Shown: one piece after another, positions 20,069 through 56,655 of the stretch | Layout of the letters: every line of letters starts with the position of its first letter | Numbering within the stretch: position 1 is the stretch's first letter | Assembly (NCBI GenBank): GCA_017616475.1 | Contig: JAFZYD010000085.1 | Location: 1-58,384 of the forward strand | Length of the DNA: 58,384 nt | Source: Bacteroidales bacterium | Lineage (GTDB): Bacteria; Bacteroidota; Bacteroidia; Bacteroidales; UBA932 | Direction: 5' to 3' | Notes under the pieces: generated by a model | Told to the model about the DNA's origin: nothing | Database searches by the model: none | What the model saw: only the letters and a program-made list of their open reading frames with translations | Program-made: the position numbers and the translations under genes

Positions 20069-21772
20069 ATGAAGCATATCACACTTTCGCTTGCATTGCT
20101 GATTGCCTGCCTGCAGATGGCGGCGCAGCCATATTGGAACATCAACACCCGCATTATGCCGCTGCGCGTGCCGGTGGGCGAACGGCCCGAATTCCTGGAC
20201 CTCAACAACGACGGACGGCAGGACGCCGTAAAGAGCTACATCCGCGGCGACATCCCCATCCTGTGGCTGGACGAGGACGGCAATATGAAGGCGGGCGACA
20301 TTGAGGGCGACGTTGTGAACGACTGCCTGCTGGTGGACCGCGACAAGGACGGCATCTACGACCTTATTGTTAAACACGCAGACCAGACCGGCAACGGCGT
20401 GGCGGACGTTCAGTTGGTGATAGACTACCCACACTGCGGCAAGGACGGCTGGATTAACTTTATGTATGTGTTTGACGACGACGGCGACGGCGTCTTCAAC
20501 TATATCGACTGGAATGCGATGGAGCTTTGGTGCTGGGAGAAGAACGGCATAAGCGACTTCTACACCGACTACAGCGGCAATTCCACCTTCCTCAAGACCC
20601 ACCGCAAGCCCGACGTGATGGAAGACCTCCGCTACCAGTGGGAGAACCCATTCATTTTCTACGACTACGACGGCGACGGCCTCAGCGAGATGGCGGTGCG
20701 CTTCTGCGACGGCTCCTTCCCCAAGGAATCGGCACAGGCGGCCGGCTACGACCTCTGGCAGCACCAGGGTTGGATGCACTGGTTCTCGATGGGCATAGAT
20801 ATGGACAACGACAACGCCCCGGGCAACGATTTTGACTTTGATATGACGCTGTGCTATCGCGGCGACAAAGCGGTTAACTACAGCGACTGCGTCCATCCGC
20901 TGCGGGGTATGCGCGGCCTGCCGGAGGCAGACAAATTCTTCCCGGACCCACGCTACCGACTGCTCACGGAACTCATTTACCCGGACCGCAACCAGGCCTT
21001 CAAGGTGGGCTTTTCCGGCAACTGGGCCCGTGCATTCTTTGTATGGGACGAAGATGACGACTGCGGCCGCTGGGAGCGTGTAGAACTTTACGACAATATG
21101 GACGCCTTTAAGATGGGCGCGGGCCAGGGCGGGCTTGACAACAACCCGCAGGCTGACGTCACGGGCGACCGCGGCGAGTGGGATATGGATTTCTCCGGCG
21201 GCGGCGACATATACATAGGCCGGTTTGACGGGCGCGTGCACCTATACGGAGCGGAGCGGGGCGTGTGGCGCATAGACCAGAACACCCAGTACTACCAGGG
21301 CTTCAACCGCACCTGGCAGAACACCGCCCCTGGCAACTGCGCCACCGTGGAATACACGGACGAGAACGGCAACGGCTTTTTAGATTGCATAAAATATGAC
21401 CTCAACGGCGACCACGAATACGAGATTACCGTATCGCTGCTGGAACTCGGGCTGGACGACACCTGCTCCGTGCTGGACGTCTCCAAAATGAAATACAAAG
21501 ACTACACCCGCCTGTTCAAGCGCGTGTCGGGCGGAATGTGGGCCCGCGCGCAGGACGCCCGCAAAGTGGCCCGCGTGCTGGGAGTGGAGACCTACTGGTA
21601 TTCCAAGCTTTTGACCGGCGGCAGCGCCCGCAAGAAATATCACGACGGCTGGTGGTTCCAGTTCTACGTTTACAAAGATCTGGAGCAGCGCTACATCGCC
21701 GCCGGCGACACCGAGGCGTTGCAACGACTGACCCGCGCCTACTACTCCGGCGACTGGAAGTCGCTAATCTAA
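20069..21772 (+). CDS. Secreted protein with multiple DxDxDG calcium-binding loops (FG-GAP/integrin-alpha-like repeats); function unknown
   Basis: Signal peptide MKHITLSLALLIACLQMAAQ. Acidic loops recur throughout: DLNNDGRQD, DRDKDGIYD, DDDGDGVFN, DYDGDGLSE, DMDNDNAPGND, DENGNGFLD, DLNGDHEYE. Confidence 0.7.
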   Translation: MKHITLSLALLIACLQMAAQPYWNINTRIMPLRVPVGERPEFLDLNNDGRQDAVKSYIRGDIPILWLDEDGNMKAGDIEGDVVNDCLLVDRDKDGIYDLIVKHADQTGNGVADVQLVIDYPHCGKDGWINFMYVFDDDGDGVFNYIDWNAMELWCWEKNGISDFYTDYSGNSTFLKTHRKPDVMEDLRYQWENPFIFYDYDGDGLSEMAVRFCDGSFPKESAQAAGYDLWQHQGWMHWFSMGIDMDNDNAPGNDFDFDMTLCYRGDKAVNYSDCVHPLRGMRGLPEADKFFPDPRYRLLTELIYPDRNQAFKVGFSGNWARAFFVWDEDDDCGRWERVELYDNMDAFKMGAGQGGLDNNPQADVTGDRGEWDMDFSGGGDIYIGRFDGRVHLYGAERGVWRIDQNTQYYQGFNRTWQNTAPGNCATVEYTDENGNGFLDCIKYDLNGDHEYEITVSLLELGLDDTCSVLDVSKMKYKDYTRLFKRVSGGMWARAQDARKVARVLGVETYWYSKLLTGGSARKKYHDGWWFQFYVYKDLEQRYIAAGDTEALQRLTRAYYSGDWKSLI

Positions 21773-30126: not shown

Positions 30127-30642
30127 TTATAGCGGATCTGGCAGGATGATTACCGTTGTACCCACCTCCACCCTGTTTTTAAGGTCGGTGACATCTTCGT
30201 TGCGCATTCTTATGCACCCTTCCGTGGCCCGCGAGCCTATCGATTCGGGGAACGGGGTGCCGTGTATGCCGATATCTATGAAGCCGGGCACGTTAAGCCG
30301 CAAAAACCACGGCCCGTAGGCGTCGCGCACCGGCCCTTTGCCGTCGCCAAAGTCGTGCGAAAGACCTTTGGCATAGAGCAACTGGTTGATTTTGAAAGTC
30401 CCCTCCGGCGTGCGGTGGTCGCCGCGCCGCTCTTTAGGGCCGTAGTTCACCGCGCAGGCGATGCCATATTCCTTTATGGCATCTCCGGCCGTATCTACCA
30501 GCGTAAGGGTGAAGGCCTGCTTGTCCACTACGATGAACGGCTTACCGCCGGAACGGTCCAGATATTCCGCAAAGCGTCCCCGGGCCGAAGCCCCGGAGCA
30601 GAACATCGTAATACAGAGCAAAATGAGGGTTATCCTTTTCAT
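30127..30642 (-). CDS. L,D-transpeptidase (YkuD domain), secreted
   Basis: Signal peptide and catalytic motif IHGTPFPESIGSRATEGCIRMRNEDV. Confidence 0.85.
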   Translation of the reverse strand: MKRITLILLCITMFCSGASARGRFAEYLDRSGGKPFIVVDKQAFTLTLVDTAGDAIKEYGIACAVNYGPKERRGDHRTPEGTFKINQLLYAKGLSHDFGDGKGPVRDAYGPWFLRLNVPGFIDIGIHGTPFPESIGSRATEGCIRMRNEDVTDLKNRVEVGTTVIILPDPL

Positions 30643-30729
30643 TCCAACCGCGAAGATAACAAAAATCTGGTAAGCATATTTTTGGAAGAACGGCCAAAAG
30701 TGTGCACCTTTGGGAAAATATTACGCCTA

Positions 30730-32547
30730 ATGAAAGGGAAGGTTGTTTTTGAAAAGGACGCTTTGCAGGAGAATCTGCGTCTCAAGGGACGCTGGGGCAA
30801 GTTCCTTACAAATGTGCTGTTCCACGTGCTGGAATTGGGCAGCATCAATAGTAAGTGCGCGGGCGTAATGGACCTCGAAGGGCCCGAATTCTCCGCCGGG
30901 GTGCTGCGCGCAATGGGCATATCCTACAACATACCCGAAAGCCAATTGGACTACATCCCCGCCGAGGGGGGCTTCATAACCATCTCCAACCACCATTACG
31001 GCGGCGCCGACGGGCTCATACTGAACACCGTCGTGGGCTCCCGCAGGAGAGATTTCAAAATCATCACAACATTCATATTGGGCCAGATAGAGAACCTCAA
31101 GAGGAACTTTATCCCTGTAGACAATTTTTCCACCGTGGGCAGCCGGAGCATCTCCGGAATGCGCGCCGCGCTGGGGCATATAGCCTCCGGCTCCCCGCTG
31201 GGCCTGTTTCCGGCGGGCGAAGTGGCCACCTGGCAAAAAAAAGGCAGTCGCACCGCCGTGACAGGGCGCCGTGTGGTAGAAGACAAACCCTGGCCAGACA
31301 ACATAATCCGGCTTATTAAGAACTCCAAACTGCCGGTGGTGCCAATCTATTTTGACGGGGAAAATTCAGCCCCGTTCCACATCCTGGGGCGAATCCACCC
31401 CAGGTTCCGCACTGCCCGGCTGGCCCGAGAAATAATCAACAAAAACGGCAAGACCATAGAGGTGCGCATAGGCAAGCCGATAGCCGCCGACGACATCGCC
31501 AAGATGGAGCTCAGCGACCTCGGGCCCTATCTGCGCAGCCGCTGCTACGCCCTTGAAGCGCAGTGCGCGGAGCCGGTGAAGGACATTGCTGCAACTGCTA
31601 TGAGTCCCATTGCGGAGCCCGTGGACCCCAGCACCGTGCGCGCCCAGATGGATGCCGTAAAAGGCAAGATGATGTTCGAGACGGGCGGCTATCAAGTATA
31701 TTTGCTTGAAGAAAGTGACGCCCCGGAAGCAATGCGGGAACTCTACCGCCTGCGCGAAGAGACTTTCCGCGGCGTGGGCGAAGGGACCGGCAAACCGCTG
31801 GATACCGACGAATACGACAAGTATTACAAGCATTTGGTTATCTGGAACCCGGCGGATGGTGACATTGTGGGCTCCTACCGCATCGGCTATGGTTCCGAAA
31901 TATATGCCTCCAAGGGCATCGGCGGGTTCTATACCTCCACCCTTATCCACTACGGCCCGGAGGCCAAGGATTACCTGCCGCACTGCCTGGAGCTGGGCCG
32001 CTCTTTCATTACCGCCAAGTATCAGCGGGAGGTGCTCCCGCTCAAGCTCCTTTTCACCGGCCTTATGGTGGCGGTGGCAAAAGATCCGCAAGCGCGATAC
32101 CTTATGGGCACCGTGAGCATCAGCAACAGTATGCCCGACTTTTACAAGAGCCTGGCCGTCAGGTTTATAGAAAAGAATTACAAAATGGCGGACGCCGACT
32201 CCTGCGCCACTCCTACCCACCCATTCAAGCCCAATTATCTCCGGGTGAACCCGGACGATATGATTCGGGTACTCGGCGGCGACATTGATCTGTTCGACAG
32301 AATGCTGGTCACTATTTCGGACGGCGGCAGCCGACTGCCTGTGCTGCTTCGCAAATATTTCAGCTGCGGGGCGCGTCTGGCCTGCTTCAATGTGGACCCG
32401 CTGTTCTGCAACAGCCTGGATGGTATGATTGCCCTCAATGTTAGCGATTTCCCCGCCAACACAATGCGATCTTTCGTGCGCCCCCTGCCGGAAGATATGC
32501 AGAAAGCGATATTCAAACATTGCCTTGGCACAGAAACTCCTGAATAA
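30730..32547 (+). CDS. Bifunctional OlsF-type aminolipid synthase: PlsC-like O-acyltransferase fused to OlsB/GlsB-like (hemolysin-type GNAT) N-acyltransferase
   Basis: ORF 30262..32547 trimmed to ATG 30730 (MKGKVVF), because upstream codons overlap the L,D-transpeptidase gene on the other strand. HX4D acyltransferase motif (ISNHHYGGADG) and FPAGEV block are present. The C-terminal half resembles OlsB-type N-acyltransferases (LYRLREETFRGVGEGTGKPLDTDEYDKYYKHLVIWN, GSYRIG). Confidence 0.8.
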   Translation: MKGKVVFEKDALQENLRLKGRWGKFLTNVLFHVLELGSINSKCAGVMDLEGPEFSAGVLRAMGISYNIPESQLDYIPAEGGFITISNHHYGGADGLILNTVVGSRRRDFKIITTFILGQIENLKRNFIPVDNFSTVGSRSISGMRAALGHIASGSPLGLFPAGEVATWQKKGSRTAVTGRRVVEDKPWPDNIIRLIKNSKLPVVPIYFDGENSAPFHILGRIHPRFRTARLAREIINKNGKTIEVRIGKPIAADDIAKMELSDLGPYLRSRCYALEAQCAEPVKDIAATAMSPIAEPVDPSTVRAQMDAVKGKMMFETGGYQVYLLEESDAPEAMRELYRLREETFRGVGEGTGKPLDTDEYDKYYKHLVIWNPADGDIVGSYRIGYGSEIYASKGIGGFYTSTLIHYGPEAKDYLPHCLELGRSFITAKYQREVLPLKLLFTGLMVAVAKDPQARYLMGTVSISNSMPDFYKSLAVRFIEKNYKMADADSCATPTHPFKPNYLRVNPDDMIRVLGGDIDLFDRMLVTISDGGSRLPVLLRKYFSCGARLACFNVDPLFCNSLDGMIALNVSDFPANTMRSFVRPLPEDMQKAIFKHCLGTETPE

Positions 32548-34100
32548 TGGATAGTCCGGTTTGGGTATATCTCCTGGGGCTCTCCGGGATGGCCATATAT
32601 GGTTCGCGAATCCTCATTCAATGGTGGATGTCAGAAAAGTCCCACCAGGTGGAATCGCCCGCCATCTATTGGATTCTGAGCAGCATCGGGGCCATTCCGC
32701 TGTACATCTACGGCTGGCTCCGCAAAGATTTCTCCATCATTCTCGGGGAGAGTCTGGGCTACTACATATATATGTGGAACATCGGCATAATGGGGCTCTA
32801 CAAGAAGGTTCCCAAGACCGTCTTCATTGTTCAGGCGCTCTTCCCCCTCATAATCCTGGCCCTTATTACCAAAGATTTCAAGGTATTTGCCGACACTTTC
32901 CTGCGCAACGAATATGTACCGCTCAAACTCCTGCTGTTCGGCGTGCTGGGGCAGGTGACATACGAATCGCGCACCATATACCAGCTCATTTACAGCTACC
33001 GCAGGCGCGGCTCCTACCTCCCGCTGGGGCACTGGATACTGGCGGTGGCGGGGAGCACAATGATAATAATATACGGCCTCATCCGGCACGACTGGGTGCT
33101 GGCCATTGGCCAGTTCTCCATCTTCTTCTCTATCCGCAACCTTATGCTGAGCGTGGCCTCGCGCCGCCGCCGCAAGATTGTCACCACCTTGTTTATGGTG
33201 CGCCCGGTGCGTTTCGGCTTCAACACCCAGACCGCCGGCAACAACCATTTCCAGCACCAGGCCGACGGGAGCGACATCCAGGCCAGGGCCCTGGCCGAAT
33301 TCGACGGGATGGTGACACTCCTCAAGCGGAACGAAATCCCCGTGATGGTCTACGAAGACACCCCGGAGCCGGAGACGCCCGATTCAATATTCCCCAACAA
33401 CTGGTTCTCCACCCATATAGACGGGAGCCTGGTGCTCTACCCTATGTTCGCCCCCAACCGCCGCAGCGAGCGCACCCCGGAAGCCATCGAGGCCATAAAG
33501 AAGGCCGCCGACACCCGCCGCGTGATTGACCTGACCGGATGGGAGAAGAAGAAAAAGTTTCTGGAGGGCACCGGCAGTATGGTGCTGGACCGCAAGAACC
33601 GCATTGCCTATGCCTGCCGCTCGCCCCGTACCTCAAAACCGGTGCTGGATGAGTTCTGCCTCAAGATGGGCTTCATCCCCTGCTTGTTCGACGCCAAGGA
33701 CAGGGACGGCAACCCCATCTACCACACCAACGTTATAATGTCCATTGGAGACGATTTCGCGGTGGTTTGCCGCGACGTTGTTGTTTCTCTGCCGGAATAC
33801 ACCGAACTGGTAGGCCGCCTCTCCTCCGCTGGCAAAAGGGTTGTGGAAATTACCTACGAGCAGATGATGCAATTTGCCTGCAATATCCTGGAGGTAGAAA
33901 ACATCCGGGGCGAAAAGTTTGTGGTGATGTCCGAAACGGCCCTGGGCAGCCTGCGTCAGGACCAGATTGCCGCCATCAAGGGGGAGCGGCGCAACATACT
34001 CCCCGTCCACATCCCCACCATAGAGGAGATTGGCGGCGGCGGCGCCCGCTGTATGATGGCGGAGATTCTCCACCCTATGTCCGAGCCGGAAAGCGAATAA
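32547..34100 (+). CDS. Fusion protein: two LAB_N (lipid-A-disaccharide-synthase N-terminal type) membrane domains plus a CtlX/arginine-deiminase-related amidinotransferase-fold domain
   Basis: The start overlaps the upstream stop by 1 nt (TAATG). Residues 1-200 form two repeats of a 3-TM module (GSRILIQWWMSEK..., ESRTIYQLIYSYRRRG...). From Met217 (nt 33195) the sequence resembles COG4874/CtlX enzymes (PDSIFPNNWFSTH, FLEGTGSMVLD, YHTNVIMS, catalytic GGGGARCMMAEI). Confidence 0.75.
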   Translation: MDSPVWVYLLGLSGMAIYGSRILIQWWMSEKSHQVESPAIYWILSSIGAIPLYIYGWLRKDFSIILGESLGYYIYMWNIGIMGLYKKVPKTVFIVQALFPLIILALITKDFKVFADTFLRNEYVPLKLLLFGVLGQVTYESRTIYQLIYSYRRRGSYLPLGHWILAVAGSTMIIIYGLIRHDWVLAIGQFSIFFSIRNLMLSVASRRRRKIVTTLFMVRPVRFGFNTQTAGNNHFQHQADGSDIQARALAEFDGMVTLLKRNEIPVMVYEDTPEPETPDSIFPNNWFSTHIDGSLVLYPMFAPNRRSERTPEAIEAIKKAADTRRVIDLTGWEKKKKFLEGTGSMVLDRKNRIAYACRSPRTSKPVLDEFCLKMGFIPCLFDAKDRDGNPIYHTNVIMSIGDDFAVVCRDVVVSLPEYTELVGRLSSAGKRVVEITYEQMMQFACNILEVENIRGEKFVVMSETALGSLRQDQIAAIKGERRNILPVHIPTIEEIGGGGARCMMAEILHPMSEPESE

Positions 34101-34156
34101 AAAAATGGACAACCCGGGGGTTGTCCATTTATTCTGTAGTAAAAGACCTTAAAGCC

Positions 34157-34932: not shown

Positions 34933-35988
34933 ATGGTCTCTTATTTTGACTGTCAACATACCGCCCAGGGCGACAAGTTCATTTCCAGGACCGACGCCGT
35001 CCGTCTTTTGGCGGCCCAGATCAAAGAAAAGAAATTCTCCACCATATACGCAGCTCCCGGCTACGGCAAGAAGTCGCTGGTGGAAAAGGCGCTGCATATG
35101 CTAAAGAACGGCGCCTACCCTTTCACCCTCATCACCATAGACCTGTTCAACGTGACCAACGCCGAGGCGCTGGCGGCGCAGTATGTAGCCGCCCTGCGCA
35201 AGCCCATCGAGGAGTACAATAAAGACGCCCTGTTCCCAATCCGGATAGATTTCGAGAACGTCAGCACGTCCCTGGCCATAAACCTGCCCAACATAACCGG
35301 CAGCGTTGCAGGCACCAACTTCGTAGTCTATTTCAAGGAGTTCCAGAACATCCTCAATATGAGCGGCGGGGAAAAGTTGCTCAAACTTATGGAGAAGGAG
35401 TTCCCCGGACACCAGTCGGTGGCCTATGTAGTGACCGGCGAGCAAGTGAACCGTATGAAGGATATTTTCGAAAATCGCAAGTTCTTCCACGAGATAAACT
35501 GCAATATTGAATTGGAGCCGTTGGAGCGGGCGGCCAGCAAAGCTTATCTGCGCAACGGGTTCCTCCACTCCGGCAAAGACCTTGAAGACGAGACCGGCGA
35601 CGCTCTGTACGACACCGCCTGCGGCAACCCCATTGTAATGAACCGGCTGGCAACTATTTGCGACTCGCTCGCCATAGGCTACATAAACAAGCGCATCCTG
35701 CGCAGCGCCGTGGAGAGTTATTTCCTGGACCAGGAGGCTCAGTACCGCTACATTATGAGCAACCTCACGGACAACCAGGTGAACTTTGTAAGGGCCGTTT
35801 GCGACGGCGTGGAGCGCTTCAGTTCTTCCGAGATTCTCAAGAAATACAAGTTGAACAGCTCCGCCAACGTGTTCCGTCTCAAGGAGGCGCTCTGCAAGAA
35901 GGAGATAGTGACTTTTGACAGCGACGAACGCGCCCGGGTTATAGACCCTATGTTCGAATTGTGGCTTAAGAAGCGCTATTTCGCATAA
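34933..35988 (+). CDS. P-loop ATPase of the archaeal-ATPase/ATPase_2 type with a C-terminal winged-helix-like region
   Basis: ORF 34876..35988; ATG 34933 is preferred because the longer start lies inside the promoter. Walker A-like APGYGKKS is present. The Walker B position reads VVYFKEFQ, where the family consensus is DEFQ. Confidence 0.65.
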   Translation: MVSYFDCQHTAQGDKFISRTDAVRLLAAQIKEKKFSTIYAAPGYGKKSLVEKALHMLKNGAYPFTLITIDLFNVTNAEALAAQYVAALRKPIEEYNKDALFPIRIDFENVSTSLAINLPNITGSVAGTNFVVYFKEFQNILNMSGGEKLLKLMEKEFPGHQSVAYVVTGEQVNRMKDIFENRKFFHEINCNIELEPLERAASKAYLRNGFLHSGKDLEDETGDALYDTACGNPIVMNRLATICDSLAIGYINKRILRSAVESYFLDQEAQYRYIMSNLTDNQVNFVRAVCDGVERFSSSEILKKYKLNSSANVFRLKEALCKKEIVTFDSDERARVIDPMFELWLKKRYFA

Positions 35989-39641: not shown

Positions 39642-41282
39642 ATGACTCCTCATCTCCGCATCGCGGCCGCGGCAACCGTCCTGGCCTTCTTCAGTTTTTT
39701 AATGGGATGCAGCACCCCCACCCCTCCGGAATTTGACTACGACGCCCTAAACCAGCAGGCGGCGGCGGAATATCTGCAGCCGGTGCACCCCGGCGTCAAG
39801 GGAGAGGTCCCCTTCTGGAACGGTTATTCCTTCAAGTTCATCTACGCCCCGGCATTCGATTTTGAAGATGTCGAAGGGGCGGCGCAATATGTCTACAGTG
39901 CCACCTCGGGCGACACGAGCCTGATGTTCGCTGCCGAAAGCCCCCGCGAAGCGCTCACCCCCGTATGGAACAGTCTTCCGATTGGCCCGGTGACCCTCAC
40001 GGTGCAGGCGGTGGACGGCGATGGCCAGAGCCTGGGCTCTCCCCAAGTGCGGGAATTTGAGAGAGACAACCCGTTCACGGGCCCGTACGACCCCGCCCCG
40101 CGCGGCTACCGCGAAGCTGCCCTCAAGGCGGCGGAGTTCATCCATAAGAGCATCATCGCCCGGAATTGGATAAAAGACACCGTCCCCAGCCTGGAATATC
40201 AGCTCAACTGCTACCCCAACAAGATTTGGGGCGGCGCCATCCAGTTGGAGTGCTTCGTAGCCCGGGAGTTGCCGCAATACCGCGAGGAAGCGCTCACCGC
40301 CGCCCGCAACGCCGCCGACGCCCTTATCCGCTACGCCCAGGGCCCGGACGGCCCCCTGCCATACTTCCCGCCCACCTATTTCGGCCGCGAGGGCGACTCT
40401 CTGGTTTGGTACATTAAGCGGGTGATAGACCGCAACAAAGATCTCACGATGTTCGCCGACGCCGTTATGGCGGCCGACGGTCTGCTGGACCTCTACGACA
40501 CCACCAAAGACAAGAAATATCTCGACCACGCCTGCCGCATTGCCGAGACCTACCGTGACAAGCAGGCCGCAGACGGCTCCTGGCCCGTAAAGGTAAGCTG
40601 GAGCACCGGCGAGTCCATAACCTCGGCCCGCTGTATGCCAACCACCATACTTACGCTGGCGCAGCGGCTGCGCGACCGCTACCGCATAAAAGGTTTCGAC
40701 AATATGATTGCCGTCACAGAAGATTGGCTATGGAAGAACACCATCTCCAACTTCAATTTCAACGGCCAGTTCGAAGATGTCAACGTGGCGGACAAGGCTA
40801 CCTATCAGAACCTCACCAACTGCGTCGCGGTAGATTGCATCGATTATTTGTTGCAGAAGCGCCGCCCCACTGAGCAGGAGATTGCCTCCTGCGTGGAAAT
40901 GGCCCGCTTTGCGGAGGACCAGTTCACCCGCTGGCATTCGCCGGTCGATGAAGAGGCCGACGCGCTTTGCACCGACGCCTTCTCCACACCGTTCGTGTTC
41001 GAGCAGTACTCGTTCCAATGCCCGATAGACGACAGCACCCTTGGCGTCGCCAGAGCCTTTATGCGGGTATATCTGGCCACGGGCGACCTTCTCTCGCTGG
41101 CCAAGGCCACGGCGTTGGCAGACAGCATCGTAAAAATTCAGGACGCCGAAAGCGGCTGCATCCCCACCAGCCTGAACCAGAGCGTGAAGGACCCCATCAG
41201 CGAGCATTGGGTCAACTGCACCTTCAACAGCATTTACACCCTCCTTATGTTGGACGATATATTAAACGGAAAAATAAAATGA
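39642..41282 (+). CDS. Lipoprotein, paralog 1 of 3; predicted alpha/alpha-toroid with QW-like motifs, function unknown
   Basis: Lipobox FLMGCS. Blocks are shared with the next two ORFs (VHPG..GEVPFWN, F(K/Y)IYAP(A/V)F, NPF(T/H)GPY, FNFNGQFEDV, ARFAEDQFTRW). QW-like motif YRDKQAADGSWPVKV is present. Confidence 0.8.
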   Translation: MTPHLRIAAAATVLAFFSFLMGCSTPTPPEFDYDALNQQAAAEYLQPVHPGVKGEVPFWNGYSFKFIYAPAFDFEDVEGAAQYVYSATSGDTSLMFAAESPREALTPVWNSLPIGPVTLTVQAVDGDGQSLGSPQVREFERDNPFTGPYDPAPRGYREAALKAAEFIHKSIIARNWIKDTVPSLEYQLNCYPNKIWGGAIQLECFVARELPQYREEALTAARNAADALIRYAQGPDGPLPYFPPTYFGREGDSLVWYIKRVIDRNKDLTMFADAVMAADGLLDLYDTTKDKKYLDHACRIAETYRDKQAADGSWPVKVSWSTGESITSARCMPTTILTLAQRLRDRYRIKGFDNMIAVTEDWLWKNTISNFNFNGQFEDVNVADKATYQNLTNCVAVDCIDYLLQKRRPTEQEIASCVEMARFAEDQFTRWHSPVDEEADALCTDAFSTPFVFEQYSFQCPIDDSTLGVARAFMRVYLATGDLLSLAKATALADSIVKIQDAESGCIPTSLNQSVKDPISEHWVNCTFNSIYTLLMLDDILNGKIK

Positions 41283-42887: not shown

Positions 42888-44510
42888 ATGAAAAAGATAT
42901 TTGCAGCCATCGCGGCCGCCGTTTTGCTGGCCGCGTGCAACCAGCCGTATCAGAATCCCCTTGAAAGTTTGGACTACGACGCCCTCAACGCTCAGGCGCT
43001 GGAAGAGTATTTGTCGCCCGTCCATCCCGGTGTGCCGGGCGAAGTTCCTTTCTGGAACAAGTTTGCCACCAAGTATATATACGCTCCGGTGTTCGAGTTC
43101 GAACAGGTGGATGGTGCCGCCAATTATTGCCTTAGCATTCCCTCCGGCGGAGAGTCGCTGTTTGTTTGCAACAACGCCCCGGTCATCGCCCTCTCCCCTA
43201 TTTGGAACGAGTTGCCGGTGGGTTGGATAGAGGCGACTATGCAGGCCACCGGTGCGGATGGCATGGCGGTCGGTTCTCCCGTCGCCCTTAAGTTCGAAAA
43301 GGACAATCCTTTCCACGGCCCGTACGAACCCGCCCCCATCGGCTACCGGGAGTCGGCAATAAAGGCCGCCAAAGCGCTACACGACAGCCCGTTAGGCCAG
43401 AGTTGGACTGGAGGCAACAAACCGGACACCACATATTTCTACAATTGCTACGCCTGCAAAATCTGGAGCGGCATCGCCCAGACGGAGTGTTTCCTTGCTC
43501 GCGAGGTACCGGAATATCACGACGCCGCCCTGGCCATCGCCCGCAATGCCTGCGACGGCCTCATTGCCATTGCTCAGCCGGAAGGTGCCCCGCTGGCCTT
43601 TTTCCCTCCCACATACTACTACGGAGAGAACAACGAAATCAGCACAAGCGTGCTCCGTTTTAATGTAGGCAAGACAATGTTTCTTGAGGCGACCTATGCC
43701 GCCAACGCTTTGCTTGACCTTTACGATCTTACAAAAGAAGAGAAATACCTCGACCACGCCCTTGGCATAGCAAAGACCTATCAGAGGCTTCAGGCAGAGG
43801 ACGGTTCCTGGCCCGTGAAGGTTATGTTCGAGACAGGCGAACCGGTGAACGAGGCCCGCTGCCTTCCCGCCGACATCCTTATGCTTGCCAACCGTCTCAA
43901 GGTAAAATACGGCGTGGAAGGTTTCGACGATATGGTGGCAAAGGGCGAGAAATGGATGTGGGACAACACCATCTCAGGTTTCCACTTTGACGGCCAGTTC
44001 GAGGATGTTCCCATCGAGGACAAGGTTCCTTATCAGAATTTGACCCACTGCACCGCCGGCGACTGCGTGGAGTATCTTATGACCAAGCCGCAGCAGACTC
44101 AGAAAGACCTTGACGCCTGCATAGAGATTGCCCGCTGGGCAGAAGACCAGTTTACCCGCTGGCACTCCGAAATAGAATATGAAGCCGACGCCCTCAGCGC
44201 CGTGGACAGCGTGTTCTCTTCGCCGTTCGTCTTCGAGCAGTATCACTGGAGGAATCCCGTGGATGCCAGCATCGCCAAGGTTGCCAACAACTTTATGCAC
44301 ATCTACCACAAAACCGGCGACCTGCTTGCACTTGCCAAGGCCAAGGCTCTGGTCGACACCCTGGTCAAGATACAAGATCCCGAAACGGGTATGATGCCCA
44401 CCCTTCCCAACAGCGAGACCAAGTTCTCCCAAGATGACATCTGGGCCAACTGCGTCTTCTACAGCATCAACATCCTTATGCGTATGCACCGCATCGCCAC
44501 CGGGGAGTAG
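42888..44510 (+). CDS. Lipoprotein, paralog 3 of 3 (same family)
   Basis: Lipobox AVLLAACN, starting 1 nt after the paralog 2 stop. QW-like motif YQRLQAEDGSWPVKV is present. Confidence 0.8.
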   Translation: MKKIFAAIAAAVLLAACNQPYQNPLESLDYDALNAQALEEYLSPVHPGVPGEVPFWNKFATKYIYAPVFEFEQVDGAANYCLSIPSGGESLFVCNNAPVIALSPIWNELPVGWIEATMQATGADGMAVGSPVALKFEKDNPFHGPYEPAPIGYRESAIKAAKALHDSPLGQSWTGGNKPDTTYFYNCYACKIWSGIAQTECFLAREVPEYHDAALAIARNACDGLIAIAQPEGAPLAFFPPTYYYGENNEISTSVLRFNVGKTMFLEATYAANALLDLYDLTKEEKYLDHALGIAKTYQRLQAEDGSWPVKVMFETGEPVNEARCLPADILMLANRLKVKYGVEGFDDMVAKGEKWMWDNTISGFHFDGQFEDVPIEDKVPYQNLTHCTAGDCVEYLMTKPQQTQKDLDACIEIARWAEDQFTRWHSEIEYEADALSAVDSVFSSPFVFEQYHWRNPVDASIAKVANNFMHIYHKTGDLLALAKAKALVDTLVKIQDPETGMMPTLPNSETKFSQDDIWANCVFYSINILMRMHRIATGE

Positions 44511-44913: not shown

Positions 44914-45825
44914 ATGAAATTGTTTGAAGAAACGACACAAGCCCGTCCGTTCATAAAATGGGTTGGAGGGAAGACGCAATTGCTAGACGAGGTGCGAGAA
45001 TCGCTGCCACGCGATTTCGCAGAGCGCAAGCATTTCACATACGTAGAGCCATTTGTTGGCGGCGGAGCCGTCCTTTTCTGGATTCTTCAAACTTACCCGA
45101 ACATTGAGTATGCAGTCATTAACGACATTAACGAGGAATTAATTTGCACATATCGAGTCATCAAAAGCGACGTTGAATCTCTTATTGAAGCATTATCCAT
45201 AATACAAGACGAATACTCCAGATTAGACACCAACGCAAGAAAGGAGTATTATCTGGCTAAGCGAGCTCTATTTAATACTAAACAGACCTCTCAAATTGAG
45301 ACTGCCACACTTTTTATTTTTCTGAATCGAACCTGCTTCAACGGGCTCTATAGGGTCAATTCTAAGGGCGAATTCAATGTACCTCACGGGAAATATGCAA
45401 ATCCGCGCATCTGTGACGCATCAAACCTTATAGCGGTCTCAAAAGTCCTTCAAAAGGTAGAAATCCTTTGTGGTGACTTTGCCCAGACTGGCAAATATGC
45501 TAATACAAGCACATTGTTCTACTTGGACCCGCCTTATAAGCCAATCACGGAAACATCGTCGTTTACCTCATACGCACAAGGCGGCTTCGATGATTCCGAA
45601 CAGATTAGACTCCGTGACTTCTGTAATCAAATTTCCACCGCTGGGGCTCTGTTCGTTGCCAGTAACTCAGATCCCACAGAAGTACACTCCGAAGAAACAT
45701 TCTTTGATAGAATCTATAATCATTTTTTCATCAAACGGGTATCAGCTGCTCGTATGATAAACTCCGACCCCAACGGGCGCGGGTGTATATCGGAGCTGAT
45801 GATTTCTAACGTAATAAATGCTTAA
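44914..45825 (+). CDS. Dam-family (alpha-class) N6-adenine DNA methyltransferase, M.MboIA/DpnM-like, predicted GATC specificity
   Basis: The ORF track starts at GTG 44908, but ATG 44914 is more likely. Motifs are PFIKWVGGKTQLL, motif I VEPFVGGGAV, NRTCFNGLYRVN, and motif IV LDPPY near the C-terminus. Confidence 0.9.
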   Translation: MKLFEETTQARPFIKWVGGKTQLLDEVRESLPRDFAERKHFTYVEPFVGGGAVLFWILQTYPNIEYAVINDINEELICTYRVIKSDVESLIEALSIIQDEYSRLDTNARKEYYLAKRALFNTKQTSQIETATLFIFLNRTCFNGLYRVNSKGEFNVPHGKYANPRICDASNLIAVSKVLQKVEILCGDFAQTGKYANTSTLFYLDPPYKPITETSSFTSYAQGGFDDSEQIRLRDFCNQISTAGALFVASNSDPTEVHSEETFFDRIYNHFFIKRVSAARMINSDPNGRGCISELMISNVINA

Positions 45826-45827
45826 AT

Positions 45828-46685
45828 ATGAGGGATTTTGATGTGTGGATGGCTGGTTTTCGCACAGCCATCTCAGGATATAAGTATTATACCGATTTTG
45901 AGAAGGTGCACCGCAACGTCGATGCCATTAGAGTAGAACTTAATATTATGAACTCTCTTATTGGAAGTGATGATATTGAGACTGATTTTGTCGCATTGTG
46001 CAGAAGGTACCCTGAGATTCTAAAGTGTATTCCTATTCTTCTTGCCAAGCGCGAGACTGAGATTCTTACAGTCGATTTTGACGGCGAGCACCTATTCAGT
46101 TTCAAGAAAAAGAATTACCCGATAGAAGACTATATTGTCTTTATGCAGGAAACCGGACTTTTCGATCTTATGAGAAATAAACGCATTCATAGTCTCGTTG
46201 ACTATGTCACTGGCGTAGAAACTGGATTAGACTCGAATGCCCGCAAAAACCGTGGCGGTCACGCAATGGAAGATCTTGTGGAGAGCTATCTTGTTAGGGC
46301 TGGACTGCAAAAAGGCAAGACTTACTTTAAGGAAATGTATATTCACGACATCGAAAAGAAATGGGATGTTGATCTATCTTGTATATCTAATGAGGGTAGT
46401 ACTGAGAAAAGGTTCGATTTTGTTATTAAGCGGCCCAGGATGATATATGGCATTGAGACCAACTTTTATACCAGCGGCGGCTCAAAATTAAATGAAACAG
46501 CTCGTAGCTATAAGACAATAGCACTGGAGACCAAGGACCTTCCATACTTCAAATTTGTATGGATTACAGACGGCCGTGGCTGGGGCTCCGCTCGTAACAA
46601 TCTTAAAGAGACCTTTGACGTGCTGGAGAATCTGTATAACATTATGGACCTCGATGAGGGTGTAATATTCACCAATCTTGTTTAG
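45828..46685 (+). CDS. Type II restriction endonuclease of the DpnII/MboI family (GATC)
   Basis: Long conserved blocks match what I recall of R.DpnII: YYTDFEKV, LNIMNSLIGS, YPEILK, LVDYVTGVETGLDSNARKNRGGHAMED, KRFDFVIK, NFYTSGGSKLNETARSYK, WITDGRGW, NNLKETFD. Confidence 0.88.
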   Translation: MRDFDVWMAGFRTAISGYKYYTDFEKVHRNVDAIRVELNIMNSLIGSDDIETDFVALCRRYPEILKCIPILLAKRETEILTVDFDGEHLFSFKKKNYPIEDYIVFMQETGLFDLMRNKRIHSLVDYVTGVETGLDSNARKNRGGHAMEDLVESYLVRAGLQKGKTYFKEMYIHDIEKKWDVDLSCISNEGSTEKRFDFVIKRPRMIYGIETNFYTSGGSKLNETARSYKTIALETKDLPYFKFVWITDGRGWGSARNNLKETFDVLENLYNIMDLDEGVIFTNLV

Positions 46686-46690
46686 TGAGT

Positions 46691-47572
46691 ATGCCTATTG
46701 CATATTACAAATCACCTGATAAGAACTTCACCCTCTTGAAGGGAGATTGTATCAAACTACTGAATTCATTTGATTTCAAGTTCGATATGATCTTCGCAGA
46801 TCCGCCTTATCACCTTTCAAACGGAGGAATCAGCATACAGAGTGGCGTTCCAGTTTCCGTAAATAAAGGTAAGTGGGACAAGTCTCAAGGGTTCGAAGAA
46901 GACTACAAATTTGACAAGTCCTGGCTTGCCGCTTGTCGCACGCACTTGAAGTCAGACGGTACAATATGGGTCAGCGGCACATACCACAATATTTTTTCCG
47001 TAGCCCGCTGTCTTACAGAACTTGATTTCAAGATACTCAATTGTATAACTTGGGTTAAAACAAATCCTCCACCCAATCTATCTTGTCGATACTTCACATA
47101 CTCAGCAGAATACATACTGTGGGCTCGTAAGGAACAGAAAGTAGCCCACTACTACAACTATGAGTTAATGAAGGATATTAACGGCGGCACACAGATGCGT
47201 GATGTCTGGACTCTACCAGCTATTGCAAAATGGGAGAAGTCCTGCGGGAAGCACCCAACCCAGAAACCGCTCTGCGTACTTTCTCGTATAATACAAGCAT
47301 CCACATGGCCAGGTGCATGGGTACTTGACCCATTCACAGGCAGCAGTACGACTGGTATAGCAGCCAATCTTCTTGGACGCCGATTCCTTGGCATTGACCA
47401 GAGTGAACCATTTCTTGAAATAAGTAGGGCTCGCAGAGAGGAGTTGAACAACGCTGACCGTCGATGCGAATTGTTGGAGAAACTAGAAAAACAAGCCAAA
47501 CTCTTCCAAGATAATGATATTCGCGTGCTAGGCGAGCCCGAGGCATATTACGGCCCAGAACTTCCTTTCTAG
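46691..47572 (+). CDS. Beta-class N6/N4 DNA methyltransferase (M.MboIC/DpnA-like second methylase)
   Basis: The track starts at GTG 46685, but ATG 46691 is more likely. Motif IV (IFADPPYHLSNGG) precedes motif I (VLDPFTGSSTTGIAA), giving the beta-class order. Confidence 0.88.
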   Translation: MPIAYYKSPDKNFTLLKGDCIKLLNSFDFKFDMIFADPPYHLSNGGISIQSGVPVSVNKGKWDKSQGFEEDYKFDKSWLAACRTHLKSDGTIWVSGTYHNIFSVARCLTELDFKILNCITWVKTNPPPNLSCRYFTYSAEYILWARKEQKVAHYYNYELMKDINGGTQMRDVWTLPAIAKWEKSCGKHPTQKPLCVLSRIIQASTWPGAWVLDPFTGSSTTGIAANLLGRRFLGIDQSEPFLEISRARREELNNADRRCELLEKLEKQAKLFQDNDIRVLGEPEAYYGPELPF

Positions 47573-47586
47573 TATTGTTTCTTTCT

Positions 47587-48339
47587 ATGGCCTTTTCCCC
47601 TTACATAATAGGCATCCTCCTTTTCATAGGGCTATTTACCCTTTTCCTTAGAAGGGGTGAGTTGAGGGGTAAGATAGGTGAATCTTTAGTATCGAATAAG
47701 TTGGATAGGCTACCCAAAGACAAATATAGGGTACTGAACAATGTTACTATACCTACGCCAAAAGGCAGTTCTCAAATAGACCATCTGGTCATCTCAATTT
47801 TTGGCATTTTCGTCATAGAAACAAAGAACCTAAAGGGCTGGGTTTATGGTGGCGAGCAGAGCGAATACTGGACGCAAAACATATACGGCAAGAAATACCA
47901 ACTCTATAACCCCATCTTGCAGAATGCCGGTCACATCCGTGCCCTTCGCCGTATACTCAAAGAATACGAACCACTTCCCTTTTTTTCGATAGTAGCATTC
48001 TCAGGCAGGGCTGACCTCAAAGTCAAAATAGAAGATGCCTGCGTTGTCTATATGGGCCAGATACTTTCTGTGATTCGGCAATTTGAAGCTAGCCGCCTGA
48101 CATGGGGGCAGGTCAACTCCATCTACGGTGCAGTCATTTCGGCACAAATCGAACCAAGCAGAGAAAACAGCAGGCAGCACAAAGAAGACATATACAATGC
48201 TCGCGTCCAAAAGAACGAAGCCTTTACTTCTGGTAGATGTCCACGTTGCGGCGGCAAACTTGTACTTCGCTCTGGTAAATACGGAAAATTTTACGGGTGT
48301 TCCAGCTACCCAAAATGCCGTTATACACATCCGTATTGA
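47587..48339 (+). CDS. Membrane-anchored NERD (nuclease-related domain) protein with C-terminal topoisomerase-type C4 zinc ribbon
   Basis: The track starts at TTG 47575, but ATG 47587 is more likely. N-terminal TM helix is IIGILLFIGLFTLFL. NERD/PD-(D/E)xK-like core is QIDHLVISIFGIFVIETKNLKGW. C-terminus is CPRCGGKLVLRSGKYGKFYGCSSYPKCRY. Confidence 0.8.
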   Translation: MAFSPYIIGILLFIGLFTLFLRRGELRGKIGESLVSNKLDRLPKDKYRVLNNVTIPTPKGSSQIDHLVISIFGIFVIETKNLKGWVYGGEQSEYWTQNIYGKKYQLYNPILQNAGHIRALRRILKEYEPLPFFSIVAFSGRADLKVKIEDACVVYMGQILSVIRQFEASRLTWGQVNSIYGAVISAQIEPSRENSRQHKEDIYNARVQKNEAFTSGRCPRCGGKLVLRSGKYGKFYGCSSYPKCRYTHPY

Positions 48340-53849: not shown

Positions 53850-53873
53850 AGCGTCAATATCTTTTAGAAGGGC

Positions 53874-54653
53874 CTACCAGTTCTTCTCTTTCTGGCGGGT
53901 TTTCAAAGCGGCCGCCTTTTCTTTATTGACCTTGTCCTGGGTCTCGTTTTCCTTGGCCTGGATGGCCTGCAGCATCTGCTCCGCCGCGTCCGGGCTTATC
54001 TTGGGCTGCGGCTGGTCCTGGGCAGGGGGCTGCTGGTTGTCCTGATTCTGGTCTTGGTTCTGATCCTGATTCTGGTCGTTATCCTTGTTCTGGTCGTCGT
54101 TCTGGTCTTTATTCTGGTCCTGGTTATCCTGGTTCTGATCTTGGTTCTGGTCCTGATTCTGATCCTGGTTGTCCTGGCTTTGGTCGTTCTGCTGATCCTG
54201 GTTCTGGTCCTGTTGCTGCTGTTCGTTCTCCAGCATCTTCTGGGCGTAAGCCAGGTTGCTCTTGGCATCCATATCGCCGGGGTTGCGGCGCAGGGAGTTC
54301 TTGAAAGCCTCCACCGCCTCGCCCCACTTGCGCTGCTGCAGATATATGTCTCCGGCGTTGAAATATGCATCGGCGGCGCGGCTGCTGCGGGACAAGCTGT
54401 CCAGAGAAGCGTTCATAAACTTCTCCGCCTCCGTGTAATTCTCAATTCTGTAAAGGTCGTTACCCAGGTTGTACTGCGCCGCCACGGAGGTAGAATCCTT
54501 AAGCAGCGCCTTTTTATAGTCGACTTCAGCCCGGTAGAACTCCCCCTTGCGGAAGTTGCGGTTGCCGCTGCGCACCTCGCGCCGGTCCACCTGCGCAAAG
54601 GCCTGCGAAGCGGCCGTCAGTGCCAGAAGCGCTATTACTATTATCCTTTTCAT
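53874..54653 (-). CDS. batC: BatC (TPR protein) with a long Gln/Asp/Asn low-complexity insert
   Basis: Signal peptide and TPR repeats (YNLGNDLYRIENYTEAEKFM, YFNAGDIYLQQRKWGEAVEAFKNSLRRNP). Its position is between batB and batD. Confidence 0.8.
   Translation of the reverse strand: MKRIIVIALLALTAASQAFAQVDRREVRSGNRNFRKGEFYRAEVDYKKALLKDSTSVAAQYNLGNDLYRIENYTEAEKFMNASLDSLSRSSRAADAYFNAGDIYLQQRKWGEAVEAFKNSLRRNPGDMDAKSNLAYAQKMLENEQQQQDQNQDQQNDQSQDNQDQNQDQNQDQNQDNQDQNKDQNDDQNKDNDQNQDQNQDQNQDNQQPPAQDQPQPKISPDAAEQMLQAIQAKENETQDKVNKEKAAALKTRQKEKNW
54000..54221. repeat. Imperfect hexanucleotide (CTGGTY/CTGATY) coding repeat giving (QDQN)n low complexity in BatC
   Basis: Residues 145-218 read QQQQDQNQDQQNDQSQDNQDQNQDQNQDQNQDNQDQNKDQNDDQNKDNDQNQDQNQDQNQDNQQPPAQDQPQPK. 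Confidence 0.85.
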
Positions 54654-54664
54654 TTTGCTCTCTC

Positions 54665-55666: not shown

Positions 55667-55667
55667 A

Positions 55668-56654: not shown

Positions 56655-56655
56655 A

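Follow-up and report, generated by a model that had tools for sequence, protein, structure and literature searches.

The locus described here raises the question why a bacterium would couple the gene for an aminolipid synthase to a gene in which an amino-acid hydrolase is fused to a membrane protein. It lies at positions 30,730 to 34,100 of contig JAFZYD010000085.1 (assembly GCA_017616475.1, a rumen Bacteroidales bacterium of the lineage UBA932), of which the whole stretch of 58,384 nucleotides (nt) was analysed (the window). Gene 1 encodes a protein with the architecture of OlsF, the bifunctional ornithine-lipid synthase, and gene 2 encodes two LAB_N repeats (together LAB_Nx2) that continue into a domain of the CtlX family (putative citrullinases). 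An interpretation made earlier from the letters alone (the sequence-only reading) had left two options, either that the hydrolase supplies ornithine locally as a head group or that it interconverts head groups on the lipid itself. We propose, with moderate confidence, that the two genes form an operon for an ornithine-type acyloxyacyl aminolipid, in which CtlX would supply ornithine locally to OlsF at a membrane platform made by LAB_Nx2. All sequences used are derived from metagenomes and function was read from sequence context.

The proposal starts from the association of the three modules across genomes. A species-level genome collection was scanned with the OlsF alignment and the JGI metagenomes with the fusion alignment, individual proteins were looked up, and all loci were scored with tblastn and hidden Markov models. 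Layouts A to E (Table 1) were found in a clade of rumen and gut Bacteroidales in which OlsF is 50-64% identical to that of the window. An OlsF-like gene is located directly upstream in 13 of 13 distinct loci with a close LAB_Nx2 homologue (those of layouts A, B and E, and L007, where OlsF is followed by LAB_Nx2 and the contig ends before any third gene). CtlX is present at the OlsF locus in nine distinct loci and in four layouts, so that the proximity of the two genes, which the sequence-only reading needed to see in related genomes, is borne out at multiple loci of the clade. Because the flanking genes vary between loci (YkuD/rpmA, Mfa-like/Metallophos, NUDIX/isochorismatase, ThrE or GH97 with DUF1846), simple inherited synteny was rejected and the linkage appears to be selected. 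As CtlX recurs at the locus in four layouts and the flanks differ, we are highly confident of a functional link between the three modules.

The constant pair in these loci is OlsF and LAB_Nx2, and CtlX is a recurrent but variable add-on. The 120 top matches of a search with the LAB_N part were all standalone proteins of ~210-236 amino acids (aa), 72-79% identical to the query, so the standalone protein is apparently the common form and the fusion to CtlX a derived minority of ~30 clusters. The OlsF-associated LAB_Nx2 sequences constitute a narrow clade, within the same 72-79% of the module of the window and at most 42% identical to others. The sequence-only reading took LAB_N for a tether of CtlX; the attachment to the membrane stands, but LAB_Nx2 is in fact the constant partner of the OlsF clade and mostly a separate protein of ~210 aa. 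Synthase and hydrolase are fused directly in L001 (9730-9840), where comparison with L170 and L086 indicates that a deletion of ~20 nt removed the OlsF stop codon and the spacer, leaving a single open reading frame (ORF). At the locus of the window itself the translational coupling noticed earlier is present, as the ATG of gene 2 at 32547 has one base in common with the TAA of gene 1; in relatives the junction between OlsF and the downstream gene ranges from a 14-nt overlap to a 20-nt gap. The combination of OlsF, LAB_Nx2 and CtlX is undescribed in the searchable literature, in agreement with the earlier remark that no such system was known, although the component families are known ones.

The assignment of the hydrolase to CtlX is clear from several sides. 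The NCBIfam CtlX model (NF046062) matches gene 2 over model positions 2-298 of 299 at 393.9 bits, above the equivalog cut-off of 334, and Pfam family PF19420 matches aa 223-507 at 325 bits. Met217 (nt 33195) aligns with the start Met of standalone CtlX proteins (e.g. P0031), and the domain was thus rightly described in the sequence-only reading as a complete guanidino-group-modifying domain of the CtlX type that starts at an internal Met. The CtlX family was defined by the genetic requirement for citrulline use and by Asn residues replacing the two guanidino-binding Asp residues, in the motifs FPNN and HTN (Price et al. 2022, PMC9007349). Across 19 fused homologues neither motif varies, nor do His393 and Cys502, and in 77 standalone CtlX proteins the conservation of all of these is at least 95%. 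Cys502 (nt 34050-34052) lies within GGGGARCMMAEI of gene 2. All fused sequences shown have the same Glu340 (in LEGTGS), and its conservation among the 77 standalone proteins is likewise at least 95%; from its spacing and invariance we assign it as the probable third catalytic (acid) residue, so that the alignment retains the catalytic residues on which the earlier claim depended. The 77 standalone CtlX proteins have 72 positions with a conservation of at least 95%, of which 63 are equally conserved in 21 OlsF-associated CtlX sequences; seven of the remaining nine keep the same commonest residue, and a new majority residue was seen at two (Gly to Ser at 341 and Phe to Tyr at 443). By these comparisons the active site of the OlsF-associated CtlX appears indistinguishable from that of standalone CtlX. 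Deimination of an arginine lipid was rejected as a function since FPNN and HTN carry Asn at the positions of the guanidino-binding Asp, which makes the arginine-lipid interconversion entertained in the sequence-only reading unlikely.

The fold points in the same direction. For the alignment-based AlphaFold model of gene 2 (mean predicted local distance difference test (pLDDT) score of 82) the best Foldseek matches in the PDB were ArgZ/AgrE (E 2e-11, TM-score 0.81 on the target), followed by DDAH, amidinotransferases and AstB, whereas sequence searches of the PDB with gene 2, the fusion profile and the CtlX domain alone gave nothing significant for CtlX. ArgZ/AgrE (the arginine dihydrolase of cyanobacteria; PDB 6juy and 6lrf) and AstB share the guanidino-group-modifying fold and the Cys/His/acid catalysis with CtlX, but sequence identity is 14-18%, and CtlX, with Asn in place of the guanidino-binding Asp, is expected to start from citrulline and not from arginine. 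The reaction cycle of ArgZ/AgrE and AstB includes a ureido-to-amine hydrolysis that yields ornithine or succinylornithine. Like the known CtlX of Pseudomonas simiae, P. fluorescens and Phaeobacter inhibens (PMC9007349), gene 2 has the FPNN, HTN and Cys signatures and is located beside a gene for an enzyme that would use ornithine. It differs in being fused to a seven-helix module, where the known form is a soluble protein of ~300 aa, and in that the partner is a lipid synthase and not the catabolic ocd or aruFG, which implies anabolic supply and not the use of citrulline as a carbon source. We also observed another undescribed CtlX fusion: P0093 and P0117 (~503-506 aa) combine a CtlX domain that is 53-54% identical to that of the window with HEAT/PBS-lyase-type repeats (PF02985, PF13646, PF20168).

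Gene 1 carries the O-acyltransferase domain at the N-terminus and the N-acyltransferase domain at the C-terminus according to both Pfam and NCBIfam, which is the order in OlsF, as in the proteins of Serratia proteamaculans and Flavobacterium johnsoniae (Fjoh_0833). Its top NCBIfam match is indeed OlsF, over the full-length model (357 bits, aa 23-578), and the description of gene 1 in the sequence-only reading as an OlsF-type fusion of a PlsC-type O-acyltransferase with an OlsB/GlsB-type N-acyltransferase is thereby supported. The acyltransferase family PF01553 was found slightly under its cut-off (22.4 against 23 bits), and the models of GlsB and GlsA remained far below theirs (128 against 300 and 98 against 260 bits, respectively), which gives no membership of the GlsA and GlsB families. 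The His/Asp motif reported earlier for the acyltransferase exists, but not with the HX4D spacing: that spacing needs His89, which is Pro in half of the relatives, while N87-H88-x5-D94 is invariant in 18 relatives and a match to N-H/Q-x2-G/A-x2-D is present in 89 of 90 OlsF-like ORFs. Sequence searches of the PDB with gene 1 gave nothing significant. Gene 1 is ~36% identical to Flavobacterium homologues, which score in a similar range with the OlsF model, and the OlsF of F. johnsoniae produces ornithine and lysine lipids (PMC12971839). The protein is probably a soluble or peripheral enzyme that N-acylates an amino acid and then O-acylates the 3-hydroxyacyl chain, with ornithine as the predicted head group. 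Gene 1 differs from the described OlsF proteins in belonging to a separate Bacteroidales clade below the curated cut-off, with a dedicated LAB_Nx2 gene downstream, with or without CtlX, an arrangement not mentioned in the 2026 review. GlsB and GlsA of Bacteroides thetaiotaomicron (BT_3459/BT_3458) have homologous domains, occur in the same phylum and perform the same acyloxyacyl aminolipid chemistry, but in gene 1 both activities are fused, and the association with CtlX points to ornithine instead of glycine.

The membrane part of gene 2 was described in the sequence-only reading as two LAB_N modules that anchor the enzyme; both repeats are present (PF07578, 135 bits in two stretches, above the gathering score), but together they make up a single seven-helix unit. 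Helices were modelled at aa 5-31, 38-58, 62-81, 90-109, 126-153, 160-179 and 183-206 (the last broken at 189-190), and an hhalign comparison of repeat 1 (aa 3-68) with repeat 2 (aa 124-189) gave 30% identity at a probability of 95% (E 1.8e-8). The layout is thus one of 3+1+3 helices, built from two homologous triple-helix repeats as in the eukaryotic SWEET proteins. The resemblance is one of topology and clan and not of family membership: SemiSWEET_3 reached 16 bits against a cut-off of 100, SemiSWEET sequences from the PDB matched LAB_Nx2 at E ~0.2, and Foldseek matched AtSWEET13 at E 0.15 (probability 0.69). In other words, LAB_Nx2 shares the two three-helix repeats and the linker helix with the SWEET, SemiSWEET and PQ-loop proteins, but without significant sequence membership. 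The distribution of basic residues favours an N-out, C-in topology. Because RRRRK follows helix 7 and LpxB occupies the same position in relatives, the CtlX domain is most likely cytoplasmic, ~8 residues from the membrane; a periplasmic CtlX was rejected on the same positive-inside signal and the analogous LpxB fusions. Only a short linker separates helix 7 from CtlX, modelled with low confidence (pLDDT below 50 at residues 206-208), and a single-sequence AlphaFold model of the LAB_N part was unusable (pLDDT 52). Conservation in the fusion family is no lower for the membrane part than for the enzyme part, and many polar residues of the membrane part are invariant. A polar core common to more distant LAB_Nx2 proteins (R21/Q25/E30/D61/N78/R142/Q146/R197) is retained in gene 2, and D182 is conserved in at least 90% of 17 sequences.

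The wider family connects LAB_Nx2 to membrane lipids. In a representative library 895 clusters (at 50% identity) matched LAB_Nx2 at E up to 0.001. The fusion partners of LAB_Nx2 in the longer proteins of this set are PMT_2/ArnT-like GT-C enzymes, LpxB and a lipid A acyltransferase of the LpxL type. The LAB_N-LpxB fusions (e.g. of Chlamydia) resemble gene 2 in layout, with two N-terminal LAB_N repeats and with helix 7 followed by a cytoplasmic enzyme, but their partner is a lipid A enzyme and not an amino-acid hydrolase. Single LAB_N repeats were also seen in proteins with an NAD-dependent epimerase or metallophosphatase domain, which may be partial or chimeric gene calls. Among P0263, P0309, P0360, P0361, P0363, P0371, P0303 and P0288 both the LAB_Nx2 fusions and the single-repeat proteins are represented. 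The closest LAB_Nx2 proteins outside the OlsF clade (36-42% identity) are encoded among glycosyltransferase genes (L171 456-3502, L172 4270-7177 and L173 3233-7209). In L172 and L173 the order is GT2, LAB_Nx2 and a large downstream gene (a PMT_2/ArnT-like GT-C enzyme in L173; without a Pfam match in L172), with an epimerase gene upstream in L173, and in L171 the GT-C gene is found two genes upstream of LAB_Nx2. Given these fusions and these neighbours, LAB_Nx2 appears to be a companion of enzymes that act on membrane lipids, with docking, lipid binding and translocation all as candidate roles.

A bolder interpretation of the same material is that the double-LAB_N seven-helix protein is a SWEET-like translocator of lipids with polar head groups, serving as the flippase of GT2/GT-C systems and, at the locus described here, as an ornithine-lipid flippase in an assembly line; we put this forward tentatively and consider it doubtful. 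GtrA and ArnE/ArnF are small flippases of three-component glycosylation systems and are encoded between the GT2 and GT-C genes, a gene position like that of the LAB_Nx2 proteins outside the OlsF clade. The LAB_Nx2 genes of L172 and L173 directly follow the GT2 gene, which is the expected place of a polyprenyl-phosphate-sugar flippase. A literature search on LAB_N and PF07578 gave no functional study (one Chlamydia paper uses the term), transport or flipping by a LAB_N protein is not shown in the searchable literature, and the recent aminolipid reviews searched make no mention of an aminolipid flippase or transporter.

Why an ornithine-lipid synthase should need a citrullinase can be understood from arginine synthesis in this phylum. 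Of 70 Bacteroidetes genomes with a complete arginine pathway 69 use the succinylated route, via N-succinylornithine and N-succinylcitrulline to citrulline, and since the succinyl group is removed only at citrulline, free citrulline is available while free ornithine is no intermediate (PMC7311316). In Proteobacteria CtlX genes adjoin those of the ornithine-consuming enzymes ocd or aruG (PMC9007349). In line with this we found in a Bacteroidales metagenome-assembled genome (GCA_054813735.1; L176 4750-6903) an ornithine-oxo-acid transaminase gene (TIGR01885, 695 bits) 22 nt upstream of a standalone CtlX gene, which suggests a route from citrulline via ornithine to glutamate-semialdehyde in Bacteroidales. 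The repeated occurrence of CtlX beside or fused to OlsF, and elsewhere beside ornithine consumers, argues that the OlsF-like enzyme consumes ornithine as well. The local supply of ornithine is therefore favoured over the other option of the sequence-only reading: the CtlX site is unchanged, which makes head-group interconversion on the lipid less likely, CtlX lies beside ornithine consumers, and arginine synthesis in Bacteroidota provides no free ornithine.

In the mechanism that we propose, arginine synthesis through N-succinylated intermediates would make free citrulline but no free ornithine, and at the inner membrane face the tethered CtlX would hydrolyse free citrulline to ornithine, CO2 and NH3. 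OlsF would use this ornithine at once as the head group, while LAB_Nx2 would hold the enzymes to the membrane and would perhaps take over the lipid product, to flip it or hand it on. In the lineage of the window LAB_Nx2 would have captured a complete CtlX hydrolase on its cytoplasmic C-terminus, with a linker of ~8 residues. The direction of the flux from citrulline via ornithine to lipid, the physical complex and the translocation of lipid by LAB_Nx2 are the steps that we infer.

Several observations weigh against this proposal. The window contains no arginine-pathway genes, so that the succinylated pathway is assumed from the phylum, and the role of CtlX as a citrullinase rests on genetic inference even for the founding members (PMC9007349); a literature search for newer biochemical work on CtlX gave none. 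CtlX is dispensable at the locus, as six loci have OlsF and LAB_Nx2 without it and L010-L012 and L015 have OlsF alone. Neither partner was found near the OlsF homologues of at most 43% identity (in Muribaculaceae, Rikenellaceae, Flavobacteriia and Marinilabiliales), nor was a dedicated downstream LAB_Nx2 gene seen in 69 more distant OlsF-like loci. At 75 standalone CtlX loci from other environments there was no OlsF-like synthase gene within 5 kb (L124 has a weak match to the O-acyltransferase domain only, ~3 kb away). The association is thus confined to one clade of rumen and gut Bacteroidales. Gene 1 scores 357 bits with the OlsF model (NF052615), under the equivalog cut-off of 620. Nevertheless, homologues from Flavobacterium (one of them at 405 bits), Marinifilum, Muribaculaceae and other Bacteroidales reach 378-423 bits and likewise fail, which indicates that the cut-off excludes the OlsF-like proteins of Bacteroidota in general, and the score of gene 1 should not be counted as evidence against an ornithine-lipid synthase. 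The head-group specificity of gene 1 is a prediction, and the F. johnsoniae enzyme also yields lysine lipid. Finally, all other fusion partners found for LAB_Nx2 act on lipids, which slightly favours a lipid substrate for the fused CtlX.

This last point belongs to an alternative in which OlsF would N-acylate citrulline and CtlX would remove the ureido group on the (lyso-)citrulline lipid, yielding ornithine lipid or tuning the ratio of citrulline to ornithine lipid and with it the membrane charge. Every other enzyme found fused to LAB_Nx2 (LpxB, the LpxL-like acyltransferase and the ArnT-like GT-C enzymes) has a membrane lipid as its substrate, the CtlX domain would be held against the membrane surface within ~8 residues of helix 7, and the direct fusion of OlsF and CtlX is compatible with either order of reaction. 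We consider such editing unlikely all the same, because the active site is as in standalone CtlX, the genes of which adjoin users of free ornithine, without a sign of the re-specialisation that an N-alpha-acylated substrate would be expected to require. Moreover, the CtlX proteins of OlsF loci are no closer to each other (62-71% identity) than to the standalone CtlX of an unrelated locus, L087 (63-64%), and the aminolipid reviews searched do not mention citrulline lipid.

That LAB_Nx2 is instead a SWEET- or PQ-loop-like importer of citrulline, ornithine or lysine, with CtlX converting the incoming citrulline for OlsF and LAB_Nx2 having no role with lipids, is improbable to much the same degree. 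The 3+1+3 topology with its internal repeat, the weak sequence and fold matches to SemiSWEET and AtSWEET13 and the highly conserved polar core would all suit a transporter, an enzyme at the cytoplasmic exit of a transporter would be a sensible design, and PQ-loop relatives such as PQLC2 carry cationic amino acids. The polar core is, however, common to the relatives in glycosyltransferase cassettes and those with lipid enzymes, and the nearest LAB_Nx2 relatives (36-42%) occur in cassettes of GT2, LAB_Nx2 and GT-C genes (L171-L173), with others fused to lipid A enzymes, all of which points to lipid-linked substrates. In addition, OlsF-CtlX pairs exist without any LAB_N (L086, L170 and L001).

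Somewhat harder still to accept is that gene 1, like a fusion of GlsA and GlsB, yields a different aminolipid (glycine, serine-glycine, lysine or other) and that CtlX is there for nitrogen release or stress co-regulation. The sub-threshold score with the OlsF equivalog, the matches to GlsB and GlsA, the absence of CtlX from the locus in many relatives of the clade and the fact that the characterised aminolipids of Bacteroides are glycine lipids and flavolipin according to the literature would fit this explanation. But CtlX has been recruited repeatedly, in four layouts that include the single-ORF fusion with OlsF, a pattern not easily explained unless the two enzymes share a metabolite; the OlsF model accounts for 357 bits against 128 + 98 for GlsB and GlsA; and the Flavobacterium homologues, a relative of which makes ornithine lipid, are under the cut-off as well. 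Compared with these alternatives, the local supply of ornithine by CtlX to OlsF is the explanation we retain. A misassembly or frameshift that merely brought functionally unconnected genes together has a negligible probability, even though all sequences are metagenome assemblies and the single OlsF-CtlX ORF (P0045 of L001) was found on one contig only: four contigs, which stem from different metagenome samples of rumen or gut, encode an identical gene 2 product and ~30 diverged clusters at 62-71% identity share the architecture, for which reasons the LAB_Nx2-CtlX fusion is not an assembly artefact, while DNA runs from four samples contain 82-100% of the sampled words of the region and the L001 fusion is an in-frame deletion of ~20 nt and not a single-base error.

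The runs that contain the region are all DNA runs, with no RNA run among them, and the genomes closest to the window are those of Candidatus Cryptobacteroides and rumen Bacteroidales. Upstream of gene 1 we noted by eye a tentative match to TAnnTTTG, the Bacteroidetes -7 promoter consensus; a sigma-70 promoter scan is not applicable to this phylum. Downstream of gene 2 the hairpin listed in Table 1 is likely a two-way terminator that closes the operon. A gene for a YkuD-type L,D-transpeptidase with a signal peptide is present at 30127-30642 (- strand), divergent and 87 nt upstream of gene 1; it probably does not belong to the module, as it is absent at that position in other loci.

Table 1. Features of the two genes and their surroundings in the window, and gene layouts at related loci
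Feature	Position or loci	Strand	Basis
Candidate -7 promoter element TATTTTTG, tentative	30677..30684	+	46 nt upstream of gene 1 start, by eye; matches Bacteroidetes TAnnTTTG
Gene 1, bifunctional aminolipid synthase of OlsF architecture, 605 aa	30730..32547	+	ATG at 30730, TAA at 32545-32547; NCBIfam OlsF model
O-acyltransferase domain (Acyltransf_2 / GlsA-like), aa 29-273	30814..31548	+	PF19576, 53 bits; GlsA model aa 24-260
Acyltransferase motif NHHYGGAD; N87, H88 and D94 invariant in family	30988..31011	+	N-H-x5-D
N-acyltransferase domain (OlsB/GlsB-like), aa 294-553; Acetyltransf_5 core aa 341-437	31609..32388	+	PF13444, 72 bits; GlsB model
TAATG, stop codon of gene 1 overlapping start codon of gene 2	32545..32549	+	sequence
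Gene 2, LAB_Nx2 seven-helix membrane module fused to CtlX citrullinase domain, 517 aa	32547..34100	+	Pfam, NCBIfam, AlphaFold2 (AF2) model
LAB_N repeat 1, helices 1-3, aa 10-79	32574..32783	+	Pfam; AF2 helices; weak SemiSWEET matches
Linker helix 4, aa 90-109, keeping the repeats parallel as in SWEET proteins	32814..32873	+	AF2 model; repeats align either side
LAB_N repeat 2, helices 5-7, aa 124-205	32916..33161	+	Pfam; hhalign against repeat 1
RRRRK, aa 206-210, directly after helix 7	33162..33176	+	sequence; positive-inside
CtlX domain (putative citrulline to ornithine hydrolase), aa 214-507	33186..34067	+	NCBIfam NF046062; Foldseek; active-site conservation
FPNN motif, F282-N285, CtlX signature in place of FTRD of guanidino-acting enzymes	33390..33401	+	sequence, alignment
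HTN motif, H393-N395, catalytic His and Asn replacing Asp	33723..33731	+	sequence, alignment
Cys502 codon, presumed nucleophile, within GGGGARCMMAE	34050..34052	+	invariant in 19 fused, at least 95% in 77 standalone
Hairpin with 12-bp stem between convergent gene 2 and rpmA	34103..34130	.	sequence
Layout A: OlsF, then LAB_Nx2-CtlX fusion	window, L006, L089, L169
Layout B: OlsF, then LAB_Nx2 only	L009, L013, L090, L091, L092, L106
Layout C: OlsF, then CtlX, without LAB_N	L086, L170
Layout C (fused): OlsF-CtlX in one 894-aa ORF (P0045)	L001
Layout D: OlsF alone	L010-L012, L015
Layout E: OlsF, LAB_Nx2 and CtlX as three genes	L174, L175

Elsewhere in the window we observed a restriction-modification cassette of the DpnII type (44914-48339, + strand), consisting of genes for a D12-class Dam methylase (44914-45825), the DpnII endonuclease (45828-46685, 351 bits) and an N6_N4 methylase (46691-47572), followed by a gene (47587-48339) encoding a NERD nuclease domain with a topoisomerase-type zinc ribbon. 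On the - strand (8111-9622) a protein of 503 aa starts with a NapC/NirT multihaem cytochrome c domain and has an FGE-sulfatase (formylglycine-generating-enzyme-like) domain at the C-terminus, an unusual pairing, and adjoins a gene for a GFO/IDH/MocA oxidoreductase with a Tat-like signal. Four ORFs of 567, 351, 546 and 725 aa (20069-21772, 34933-35988, 39642-41282 and 49023-51200, respectively, all + strand) had no Pfam match at E up to 1e-5; the third of these and its neighbour at 42888-44510 start with lipoprotein-like signals and are located beside weak GH127-like matches. A run of genes on the same strand (51201-58373, - strand), starting with a BatD/TPR/SH3 protein of 882 aa, looks like an operon of the Bacteroides aerotolerance (Bat) type, judging from the BatD gene.

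Ornithine lipids and related aminolipids influence the charge of the membrane, the tolerance of stress and recognition by the host, and the locus suggests that in Bacteroidota the ornithine for these lipids may come from a one-step branch from citrulline that is physically wired to the synthase. From independent genomic evidence it supports the ornithine specificity of the OlsF-like clade of Bacteroidales and the as yet unproven citrullinase assignment of CtlX, and it allows direct tests of where the ornithine head group comes from in Bacteroidota and of what LAB_N does. LAB_N is a domain without an assigned function; that it works with lipid-linked substrates is a testable proposal from the contexts found here (an aminolipid synthase, lipid A enzymes and GT2/GT-C cassettes), and its strict pairing with OlsF yields a concrete candidate for aminolipid transport. 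If the translocator interpretation were true, LAB_Nx2 would be the missing flippase of the GT2/GT-C glycosylation cassettes that are its commonest contexts, and its paralogue in the OlsF clade would be the first known flippase of an aminolipid (ornithine lipid). OlsF, the fused CtlX and LAB_Nx2 would then form a membrane assembly line from citrulline via ornithine and lipid to the outer leaflet, which would give a function to a widespread uncharacterised domain and an account of how aminolipids leave the inner leaflet.

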